Assembly (NCBI RefSeq): GCF_006345805.1
Contig: NC_043019.1
Span: forward strand, 4,153,360-4,217,359
Reading direction: 5' to 3'
Source: Octopus sinensis
Taxonomy: Eukaryota
Length of the DNA stretch: 64,000 bases
Under the pieces are notes generated by a model. The model searched no databases, was not told the origin of the DNA, and worked only from the letters and a program-made list of their open reading frames with translations. How positions within the stretch are numbered: the first letter of the stretch is position 1; each line of letters opens with the position of its first letter. Below are positions 18,601 to 38,789 of this stretch, in pieces. A program made the position numbers and the translations under genes.

Positions 18601-21600
18601 TCTTATGAAATTATGATCCCTATTTTGTACAAAAAAAAATATTTTTTTTACTATCAAATTTTTGTTTTCTAGATATGAAATTGTGACCATGTACATTTTA
18701 AATGTAATTTTTTTCTCTTTATGGGGAAAATATGTGGATATTTATTTTATGACGGTTGTGCAGTGAGTCTAAAAAATTGTGCATAAAGTATAAAAAGTAT
18801 ATATACATGCATACACACACACACACGCACATATATATATATATATACATACACATATATATATATATATGTGTGTGTGTGTGTGTGTGTGTGTAAATAT
18901 AATATGACATTTACTCGGTAGCCAGAATAAAACTCAGAGTTTCGGATGTCGAGGTGGAAATCCACGCCACCATCTCTTCAGTTATCCGGCCATCTGAAAA
19001 ATGGCCAGATACCTGAAGAGATTTTTCCGATGGCCGGATAACTGAAGAGATGGTGGTTTGGATTTCCACTTCAGCACCCGAAACTCCAAGTTTTATTCTG
19101 GCTACCGAGTTATTGTCACATATTATATTTACAGATAAATTCCTCTATTTACATAATATTGATGTATCTTTCTTTTGTTATCTTACCGTTTTTATCAATA
19201 TATATATATATATATATATATATAAATATATATATATATATATATTAAGTATAGGAAAGAATGGAGCTGACCGAAGATTTAACAAATTCCTTTATTTTAT
19301 TTTCGACATACGTTTCGAAGTCTGCAAGTCCCTAATTCCGAGTGAATAAGGAGTCCATTATGCAGCTTTCTCTTCAGGAAAATCCAGGAACTTAATTCTC
19401 CAACAAAATGCACAACAAGCTTTTCGACGACTGCTCACGAGGAGCCCATAAAAACAATGATAAATAATGTCTATTTATATGGGGTGACGCCAGATTGGAT
19501 GAAAGCAGGAGAATTCTCCGTTGACATAGTTCAAGGGCAGAATCAAGGTAGGAGAAGGAAGGTATAGGAAAATTAAAGAGAGTGAATGTATTCAGTATGA
19601 CTGGTATTTATATTTGATTTATTTTATGAATGAGTGCTCGAATGTATGAGTGTGTAAAATTGCCTTAATGAGTGTGTGTGTGTGCGTCTTTGAATGCGTG
19701 AAAGTGTGTGTGGAAGGCAGAGAGAGAGAGATAGCAAGAATTAACGGTCAAGAACTGAAAAGACTGTGTCTGTGTGTTCGAAAGTGTCAACTTAATAGGG
19801 AGAGGGCGGCCACAATAGCAATGACAAGATACAAGGTTACTGTTGGGATTGTAGTAGTTCTTGGCAACTATAAGAAAGTCTTTTATACTAAAAGGGATGA
19901 GATATCACCTTTCAAATTTTTTAGGAAATCCAGGGGTTATCTATATTAGACTTCATTGGTATGAGAGAAAGGTATGCTTTTTCCAGTGTAGGCATCTGAA
20001 AAAACTCTCAACAATTGAGTTTATTAGTCGGCCTCGGGCAAACAGATTATGAAAGAGTTCGGACAATTTCTCCTGCTTTCATCCAATCTGGCGTCACCCC
20101 CTATAAATAGACATTATTTATCATTATTTTTATGGGCTCCTCGTGAGCAGTCGTCGAAAAGCTTGTTGTGCATTTTGTTGGAAAATTAAGTTCCTGGATT
20201 TTCCTGAAGAGAAAGCTGCATAATGGACGGACTCCTTATTCACTCGGAATTAGGGACTTTGCAGACTTCGAAACATATGTCGAAAATAAAATAAAATAAA
20301 GGAATTTTGTTAAATCTTCGTTCAGCTCCATTCTTTCCTATACTTAATATATAAAACTTCAAATGTCCGCACTAAGGCACGGATTTTATGCCCTATGGTC
20401 GTTACTTCAACCGTGCCTTTTCTGTTGTGAGTTTGCTACCCAGGTATCGGTTATCATTCGAATTATCCGTAATAAGATAATTCATTTGTCTACTTACACA
20501 CACACACACACACACAACACACACACACACATATATATATATATATATATATATATATATATATATATATATATATATATTATATATATATATAATGCAT
20601 TAAATAATCGCCGTATTCCAATTTCCTTCACTTTTCAATGAATAGCAGATGAGTGACTATCCTCAGACACGACACAGGATACGCTTTCACGCTTTTGGGG
20701 TAAAGTTTTCAGGAATAACCCAATAGGTTTACTATTAATTCTGTGAAGTATTCATGGGTCCTGCTAGTTATTATTATTATTAATTTTATTCAAGGAGTAA
20801 GCTGTCAGAATCGTTAGCATGCTGGACAAAATGCATTGCGACATTTCATCCGTCTTTAGATTCTGGGTTCAAATTCCACTGAGGTCAACTTTGCTTTTCA
20901 TCCTTTCAGGGTCAATAAATTAAGTACCAGTGAAACACTGGGGTCGATGTAATCGATTAGGCTCCTTCCCAAAAATTTCAAGCCTTTAGTAGAAAGAATT
21001 ATTATTATTACTATTATTATTATTATTTCCCTGGGGCAGCAAAGATTTGAAATCATTAATATTTTTCATAAAAACATTGATTTCATATTTTGGAACGAGG
21101 CCAGCAATTTCTGGAAGAGGAAAATTGATTTGAACTCAGAACACGAAGACAGACAAAATGCCACCAAGCATTCTGTTTAGTGTGCTAATGGTTCTGCCAG
21201 CTCACCACATTATCCCTACAGACAAAATATTAACACATGTTACTGTCTTTGTCTTTTAGATAACATTAAAAGCCTCAGATATACTGATGCTATGTCACCC
21301 TAGAGATTCAAGGCAGTTTTTCCAGCATGTCTACAAAACTCCCTGTTATTTGGTAATGAAGAAGAACAAGCTTTATGAATATAGCATATGGTGTATCATT
21401 GACAGATTTACCAGGTATGATATGACTATGATGCGTCGTAAGTTTTATCGTAATAATTCCAATGTGCACTCTACGTCCTATCTCTATTCTTTCTCTCTCT
21501 ATTGTTCTTCCTTTCGTTTTTCCCTTCCTCTCGTTCCCTATTCTTCTCCCCTACTCTTCACCATTCGCCCTCTCTCTCCCTCTTCTTCTTTGACACTCGT

Positions 21601-38789: not shown

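Follow-up and report, generated by a model that had tools for sequence, protein, structure and literature searches.

Fold-back insertions in TA microsatellites of Octopus sinensis: head-to-head truncated copies of Penelope-like type with predicted hammerhead motifs

Overview

We analysed a stretch of 64,000 nucleotides (nt) of the Octopus sinensis genome (2.72 Gb), positions 4153360-4217359 of NC_043019.1 (contig C23), hereafter the window, which contains four fold-back elements whose hairpin parts we designate E1 (18890-19133), E2 (19241-20352), E3 (22337-23140) and E4 (38433-38586). These are not fixed hairpin elements; each of them consists of two 5'-truncated copies joined head-to-head, with a tail that extends outside the hairpin on one side only. 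According to our reading, to which we assign a probability of roughly 0.8, the pairs belong to four unrelated families inserted in TA microsatellite, two of which come from elements bearing open reading frames (ORFs), with reverse transcriptase (RT) and GIY-YIG domains in one case, while the other two are non-coding repeats likely copied by Penelope-like elements (PLEs), and a mechanism in which both DNA ends prime reverse transcription would account for the inverted arrangement. The motifs in the arms of E1 to E4 are predicted, on the basis of their sequence, to perform hammerhead-type RNA cleavage.

Architecture of the four elements

Much of the layout described in a first-pass annotation of this DNA was recovered. 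A repeat search located the long inverted arms of E1 (18890-19002/19021-19133, 113 nt, 85% complementary), E2 (19353-19513/20068-20228, 161 nt, 98% complementary, with an additional pair at 19239-19303/20289-20353) and E3 (22402-22667/22818-23083, 266 nt, 95% complementary), and the palindrome of E4 is apparent on reading and gives a minus-strand self-match of 90%. In keeping with that annotation, none of the four elements contains a frame of at least 150 amino acids (aa), TA, TG and CA repeats flank all of them, and the motif of every arm points outward. They are also mutually unrelated, sharing nothing at a blastn E value of at most 0.01 except for a 41-nt AT-rich match between E2 and E3. 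The feature that had been missed is the one-sided extension outside the hairpin, the tail, which was recognized by aligning copies from other loci; it is present in all four elements and measures from 28 to about 155 nt. Head-to-head truncated pairs were found in all four families. Table 1 compiles the parts of each element together with the related features of the window.

The region that holds the four elements has close counterparts in the assembly. Matches of 99-100% to E1-E4, in reversed order and orientation, are located at C23:3934780-3954450, about 200 kb away, and this second copy is either a large inverted segmental duplication or an assembly duplicate. More distant matches, of 90-95%, are located at C23:4047974-4073914 and on contig C2724.

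Table 1. Parts of the fold-back elements and related features of the window. Positions are those of the window.
Feature	Position	Strand	Remarks
Further fold-back	4523-4813		arms 4616-4690/4740-4813, left extension 4523-4615, next to (TA)n; degenerate boxes by eye
5'-truncated 3' end of the window's PLE family	5000-5165	+	CUG-UUG-AAGAG box 5060-5087; ends in (TA)n
Further fold-back	5448-5782		arms 5448-5547/5683-5782, about 101 nt, 90% complementary, between TA tracts
E1 inverted arm	18892-19002	-	short end 18892; hammerhead-type motif from CUGAAGA box 18981 to H17 18931
E1 head-to-head junction	19003-19020		only in the window copy and its local duplicates
E1 sense arm	19021-19133	+	hammerhead-type motif 19042-19092
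E1 one-sided tail (long end)	19134-19198	+	(TA)n next
E2 arm, from the 3' portion of a longer element with ORFs, 5'-truncated	19241-20063	-	short end 19241 in (TA)n; predicted hammerhead 19377 to 19305
E2 inverted 5'-truncated partner	20068-20352	+	predicted hammerhead 20204-20281; RF00163 match 20198-20287
E2 one-sided tail	20353 to about 20507	+	followed by (CA)n(TA)n
E3 one-sided tail, 28 nt	22309-22336	-
E3 arm, 409 nt of the pseudo-long terminal repeat (pLTR) of a coding PLE family	22337-22745	-	hammerhead-type motif 22511 to 22477
E3 second arm; truncation point 45 nt further upstream in the unit	22746-23140	+	short end 23140 in (TA)n; motif 22974-23008
Coding PLE, 5'-truncated, not of the E3 family	23198-25603	-	3' end in a (TA)n tract shared with E3
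E4 one-sided tail (long end)	38360-38432	-
E4 sense arm, haplotype TCG	38433-38511	-	hammerhead-like motif with CCGAUGA, 38498 to 38469
E4 inverted arm, haplotype CGT	38512-38586	+	short end 38586 in (TA)n; motif with CCGACGA 38522-38551

E1 and E4 across the genome

Samples of E1 and E4 copies collected with the hairpins as queries are biased, given that the loci are picked by their likeness to a hairpin. For this reason, both families were sampled again by a word of the tail alone, which gave 70 E4 loci in contig order and 90 E1 loci; these are the samples referred to below as unbiased. Exact matches to the tail words are numerous in the genome, with 3,868 for the 25-mer of E4 and 2,099 for the 26-mer of E1, and 0 for the reversed controls. 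In the unbiased samples, the copies of both families are mostly single or head-to-head in (TA)n, with few tandem neighbours (L062, L114/L115 and L147/L148 in our numbering of loci). At least four TA units follow the tail in 29 of 30 E4 and 24 of 30 E1 unbiased loci, and 26 of 31 E4 copies and 10 of 22 E1 copies are bordered by at least four on either side.

An adjacent inverted arm was found in 47 of the 70 E4 loci selected by the tail word and is absent next to the remaining 23. The 5' ends of the E4 sense arms lie between 3 and 216 nt upstream of the tail word (70 loci, alignment tally and reading; the range given for the tally of the 47 fold-backs is 26 to 188 nt), and six loci have full-length units that reach 214-216 nt upstream. 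In 40 of the 47 fold-backs, the inverted arm terminates on its outer side at the same site (+3 to +5), and in two it extends into the tail. This short-end site falls within the sequence CAUAUUA, of which a few copies retain 1-8 more bases, and such a position fits priming by a TA-ended DNA end at AU-rich microhomology.

The unbiased E1 sample is similarly composed of full-length and truncated units: 17 of the 90 loci reach 285-289 nt upstream of the tail word, the remainder are truncated at many points, and in 29 of the 90 the arm stops 103-131 nt upstream. The short-end site of E1 is ACAGAUAAAU. The centres of the E1 fold-backs could be parsed in 21 of the 27 copies of the biased sample, and they comprise 18 different sequences of 37-65 nt, the repeated ones being local duplicates. 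Considering these variable junctions and the presence of full-length single copies in (TA)n, the basic units of both families are linear: E1 and E4 are families of linear non-coding units, of about 375 nt and about 290 nt, respectively, in which the fold-back was formed anew at most insertions. The notion of a class of non-autonomous hairpin-ribozyme elements, put forward in the first-pass annotation, is therefore retained only to the extent that E1 and E4 are abundant non-coding families, whereas their basic units are linear and the hairpin junction differs between copies. It should be added that the arms of E1 and E4 tend to stop just after the ribozyme motif has been copied, which could reflect a preferred 5' end of the RNA, a stop of the reverse transcriptase or a sublineage that propagates as a hairpin.

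Three sites in the ribozyme region of window-type E4 copies define two main haplotypes, CGT and TCG, and both arms carry the same one in 22 of the 30 parsed copies. The two arms of the window copy carry one each, and L023 shows the reverse arrangement, so that 2 of the 30 parsed copies combine these two haplotypes. Because three coordinated differences between the arms are unlikely to result from decay, two RNAs were probably copied in one event to form the window copy of E4, recombination being the alternative.

A few individual loci depart from these patterns. In L069, an E1 copy abuts half an E4 arm; in L062, two E1 copies are placed head-to-tail with (TA)5 between them; and in L055, a portion of the tail is present on each arm of an E1 copy.

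E2, E3 and their coding relatives

The last 290 bp of the 1112 bp of E2 are an inverted partial copy. Matches at other loci cover only positions 1-823 of the 1112, and the full form is confined to the window and one duplicate. Other copies of the family extend upstream into frames of up to 536 aa, with truncation points that differ among them. The tail is present in five of ten other family copies and, in the window, on a single arm; the short-end site is UUAAUAUA. Contigs from the sequencing runs X1, X2, X4 and X7, the kind of which was guessed, overlap parts of E2, although contigs cannot reveal the ends of molecules.

The junction of E3 is equally local, given that other loci match positions 1-409 of 804 only and the full fold-back is confined to the window and its duplicates on C23. 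The tail is found on exactly one arm both in the window and in all three independent inverted pairs that we identified (L034, L050 and L051). This family is linked to coding elements: ORFs with RVT_1 and GIY-YIG domains lie between two direct E3 units in L049, and L051 holds two inverted coding copies of the family. The frames of L051 score 27.6-27.8 bits for RVT_1 (Pfam cut-off 29.6) and 25.8-26.1 bits for GIY-YIG (cut-off 22.6), and those of L049 are similar. The coding PLE that had been noticed beside one of the elements does adjoin E3; its RVT_1 (24551-25603) and GIY-YIG (23830-24636) matches, both on the minus strand, are below the Pfam cut-offs.

These results agree with the suggestion of the first-pass annotation that the elements could be truncation products of PLEs, since the junctions of E2 and E3 are found only locally, the E3 unit flanks RT and GIY-YIG ORFs, and the E2 arm is variably truncated. 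Its proposal to connect the arms with autonomous PLE ends succeeded for E3, through the copies with RT and GIY-YIG, and not for E1 and E4, for which no coding relative was found. The genome-wide search for recurring junctions that it had also proposed returned mostly copy-specific ones, an outcome that speaks against the fold-back as a fixed unit, although a hot spot in E4 does recur.

Hammerhead-type motifs

The first-pass annotation had assigned to each arm a type I hammerhead with a short palindromic stem III. The second part of this description holds throughout, as helix III is near-palindromic in all motifs. With regard to the first, the core CUGANGA...GAAA...UH with three helices is complete in both arms of E1 and E2, and it is also complete in the window copy of E3; in the window copy of E4, which reads CCGAUGA in one arm and CCGACGA in the other, core position 4 is occupied by C and not U, and E1, E3 and E4 are without a match to the Rfam hammerhead model RF00163. 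A search of the whole window with Rfam returned no hammerhead, neither at the gathering score nor at E values of at most 10, and the gathering score of RF00163 is reached by none of the four elements. When a 121-nt segment of the right arm of E2 was searched, an end-to-end match was obtained (Table 1), with 30.6 bits (gathering score 34) and an E value of 2.7e-6. The model expects a helix III of 4 bp and a short helix II, and the loss of score in E2 is due to an insert of 55 nt in helix II.

A relaxed descriptor finds six sites in the window, which are both arms of E1, E2 and E3 only, compared with a mean of 0.3 over 30 shuffles, a contrast that is indicative only because the descriptor was written after the motifs had been seen. 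The E4 window copy fails this descriptor, and a strict descriptor matches E2 alone.

The E1 family offers a view of how the predicted structure varies. In 19 copies of the unbiased sample, 90.2% of the cells of the hammerhead structure are paired, as opposed to 37-55% when the partners are slid. Changes on both sides of a pair affect four pairs and ten cells, compared with 3.9 in shuffles, and none of 500 shuffles reaches ten; examples are G-C/A-U in helix I and U-A/C-G in helix II. Position N7 is variable (A, C or U), while the rest of the core is kept. The motif of E4 has a helix II of 2 bp closed by a GNRA tetraloop, and the differences between its lineages fall at N7 (U/C), within the GNRA loop (GCAA/GGAA) and at the pair that closes helix II.

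In the family of the window's coding PLE, both copies seen have three extra bases inside the CUGANGA box; the hammerhead-like box of the copy next to E3 reads CUG-UUG-AAGAG...GAAACGUU (23329 to 23302).

The 5' ends of E4 were also considered as a trace of cleavage in vivo; three of 70 lie at the predicted site, but the junction shares the microhomology ACAG, and this signal was discarded as too weak, as was that of E1.

Counter-evidence and alternative explanations

Several results weigh against our reading. With respect to the motifs, Rfam searches of 81-261 nt gave no hammerhead match at an E value of at most 10 for E1, E3 and E4, so that three of the four elements fail the hammerhead model and the remaining one, E2, aligns with it from end to end below the gathering score. 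The covariation of E1 traces to two subfamilies and hence to few events, and the structure was derived from the same sequences; RNAalifold, applied to the E1 alignment, detects no covariation and misses helix I, and instead of a three-way junction it proposes a long hairpin for helix III together with a portion of helix II. The 5' ends of E1 lie within 1 nt of the predicted cleavage site at four of 90 loci, where about one is expected, which represents a weak enrichment. The box of E3 reads CUGAAGA in 11 of 17 family sequences and CCGAAGA in six, and the C form is that of the coding copies (L049 and L051); since CpG decay could turn CCGAAGA into CUGAAGA, the canonical-looking box of the window copy (22477-22511) may be a derived state. 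In E4, core position 4 is U in 24 and C in 17 of the 41 sense arms, from the 70 loci, that keep the box. The failure of E1, E3 and E4 in Rfam and the C at core position 4 in many copies are what would be expected if the insertions were of PLE type but the motifs of E3 and E4, and perhaps that of E1, were inactive relics or look-alikes, an explanation that is also favoured by the short helix II of E4, by the three extra bases in the box of the window's PLE family and by the poor cleavage in vitro of the minimal PLE hammerheads described in the excerpts of PMC4209133. It has to contend, however, with the confinement of the differences between E4 lineages to N7, the GNRA loop and the closing pair of helix II, with an E1 core that is kept except for N7 and is accompanied by compensatory changes in helices I and II, and with a near-palindromic helix III everywhere, as published for PLE hammerheads that act as dimers. 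We regard this explanation as less likely than not.

Concerning the origin of the elements, no autonomous or coding partner of E1 or E4 was found, and neither family shares 3' sequence with the PLE-type 3' ends of the window (E2, E3 and the coding PLE) at a blastn E value of at most 0.01. The 536-aa frame upstream of E2 has no match in Pfam, and both domain matches of the window's PLE remain under the curated cut-offs. A single CTAG, 88-91 nt upstream, is the stopping point of 18 of the 70 sense arms and of 17 of the 47 inverted arms of the unbiased E4 sample, and all 40 loci scored with the E4 hairpin as query cover positions 2-154 of 154, with recurrence of a junction like that of the window; a lineage that moves as a hairpin is thus possible. 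Taken to its full extent, this possibility would amount to a separate class of fold-backs, non-autonomous elements whose intact hairpins transpose and bear a ribozyme in both arms. Matches to E1 and E4 that span the entire hairpin at every scored locus and come from many chromosomes are in line with such a class, as are the majority sequences of the two arms, which are perfectly complementary among the 31 window-type E4 copies, the mirror types of their centre (G-CTAG in 13 and CTAG-C in 12 of the 31), and a one-site asymmetry between arms that recurs with the same polarity in four E4 copies. The samples behind these observations were, however, picked by their likeness to a hairpin, whereas the loci picked by the tail show varied junctions, full linear units and, for E4, 23 of 70 cases without an inverted arm. 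Moreover, almost every E1 copy has a centre of its own, the inverted arm ends on its outer side at a fixed position inside the unit and not at a transcript end, the arms can differ in family haplotype, and the two mirror forms of the E4 centre are about equally frequent relative to the tail, an outcome more in keeping with re-formation than with descent. We therefore consider a fold-back class of this kind very improbable. Even less credit can be given to miniature inverted-repeat transposable elements (MITEs) of the Stowaway or Tc1/mariner type, with a TA target duplication and hammerhead boxes that arose by chance, despite lengths of 150-300 bp, long inverted arms, TA flanks and thousands of copies. 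Owing to the one-sided tail, the ends of the whole elements are unlike each other and do not form the terminal inverted repeats of a MITE, which argues against cut-and-paste transposition; the units are truncated from the 5' side at many points, the flanks are whole TA tracts rather than a 2-bp duplication, and the coding PLE copies show the same architecture.

Proposed mechanism and comparison with known systems

In the PLE-type insertion that we favour, the endonuclease of a PLE would cut both strands of a (TA)n tract, and each of the resulting DNA ends would prime reverse transcription on an element RNA. One DNA end would start at the 3' end of the RNA and produce the long end with the tail, while the other would begin 28-160 nt further upstream, at an AU-rich site within the RNA, and produce the short end. 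Both complementary DNAs would stop at variable points and would then be joined, which would leave a copy-specific junction. The distance between the hammerhead-type motif and the short end is no more than about 40-170 nt, so the motif would be copied into both arms and would read outward in each. The architecture and the target of E1 and E4 suggest that these families depend on PLE enzymes for their mobilization. As a tentative extension, on which we would not bet at even odds, every PLE-type insertion might be two-ended, with DNA ends that prime at two fixed places of the RNA, its 3' end and the internal AU-rich site, and that can make use of two RNAs, a possibility to which the two haplotypes in the arms of the window's E4 copy point, and the coding lineages might carry a hammerhead with C at core position 4. 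If this were true, the tail and the inverted repeats of PLEs would become a defined and testable integration mechanism.

The proposed mechanism resembles twin priming, which was reportedly described for L1 retrotransposition by Ostertag and Kazazian in 2001. In both cases, the two cleaved DNA ends would prime reverse transcription and an inverted segment is joined to a direct one. The inverted part of L1, however, is a different and more 5' part of one RNA, whereas both arms of the elements studied here copy the same 3' region, so the template would have been used twice or two RNAs would have been copied. Among the titles and abstract openings considered, none links PLEs with twin priming.

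The published description of PLEs, as far as it is covered by the excerpts of Craig et al. 2021 (PMC8557442), includes inverted 5'-truncated copies, a tail of 30-40 bp that is often present at one end only, a bias towards (TA)n, hammerheads in the pLTRs and non-autonomous relatives; the same excerpts treat PLE integration as unsolved and name the inverted repeats, the tails and the microsatellite bias as unexplained. Minimal hammerheads that act as dimers have been reported in PLE repeats, and in Schistosoma dual minimal hammerheads are found 100-700 bp apart on opposite strands (excerpts of Cervera and de la Pena 2014, PMC4209133). The insertion units of endonuclease-bearing (EN+) PLEs and the elements of the window are thus alike in having a head-to-head inverted 5'-truncated copy, a tail at one end and a (TA)n target, as well as a terminal repeat whose minimal type I hammerhead-type motif has a short palindromic helix III, and RT and GIY-YIG in the autonomous copies of the E3 family. 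They differ in the length of the tails, which range here from 28 to about 155 nt in comparison with the published 30-40 bp, in the non-coding nature of two of the four families, whose units measure about 290-375 nt, and in the C at core position 4 of apparently intact coding copies.

The metazoan non-LTR (long terminal repeat) retrozymes, known to us from excerpts of Cervera and de la Pena 2020 (PMC7229834) and of Li, Clavereau and Pollet 2026 (bioRxiv 10.64898/2026.07.22.740005), share with E1 and E4 the non-coding units of a few hundred nt, the type I hammerhead (a predicted one in E1 and E4), the high copy number and the proposed dependence on PLEs. According to these excerpts, retrozymes form head-to-tail tandem arrays and circular RNAs, whereas most copies of E1 and E4 stand alone or head-to-head in (TA)n and seldom form tandem pairs, so tandem arrays do not characterize them. 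The words "inverted" and "microsatellite" are absent from the excerpted text of PMC7229834.

Other features of the window

Two partial elements had been announced near positions 4616 and 5455. Both turned out to be fold-backs (Table 1), but by eye they contain only degenerate hammerhead-like boxes; the fold-back at 5448-5782 includes the sequence ...GAAACCGGUC with a degenerate 5' box. According to a blastn self-comparison, additional close inverted repeats outside low-complexity sequence are found at 6048-6147/6282-6382, 33842-33908/34000-34066, 44970-45110/45263-45400 and 61788-61879/62108-62199. Positions 39760-43305 of the plus strand hold a Ty3/gypsy-type pol region in which DUF7041, RVT_1, RNase H and integrase are distributed over several frames; the region is therefore interrupted. 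Sub-threshold matches to microRNA families (mir-3149, mir-1277 and mir-297) at 18811-18892 and in many other places correspond to hairpins of TA/TG microsatellite and are artefacts of composition.

Significance

The fold-backs of this region are real but ordinary in kind, and the new value that they add is modest: a quantified rule for the ends, arms made of two haplotypes, and variants of the hammerhead box with C at core position 4. For annotation, hairpins of this type should be masked as PLE-type retroelements and not as MITEs, microRNA precursors or a new class of element. E1 and E4 constitute a record of thousands of insertions, in which it can be read where arms start, where they stop and whether the two arms share a template, and a full census of such families could test both two-ended priming and ribozyme cleavage without a bench system.

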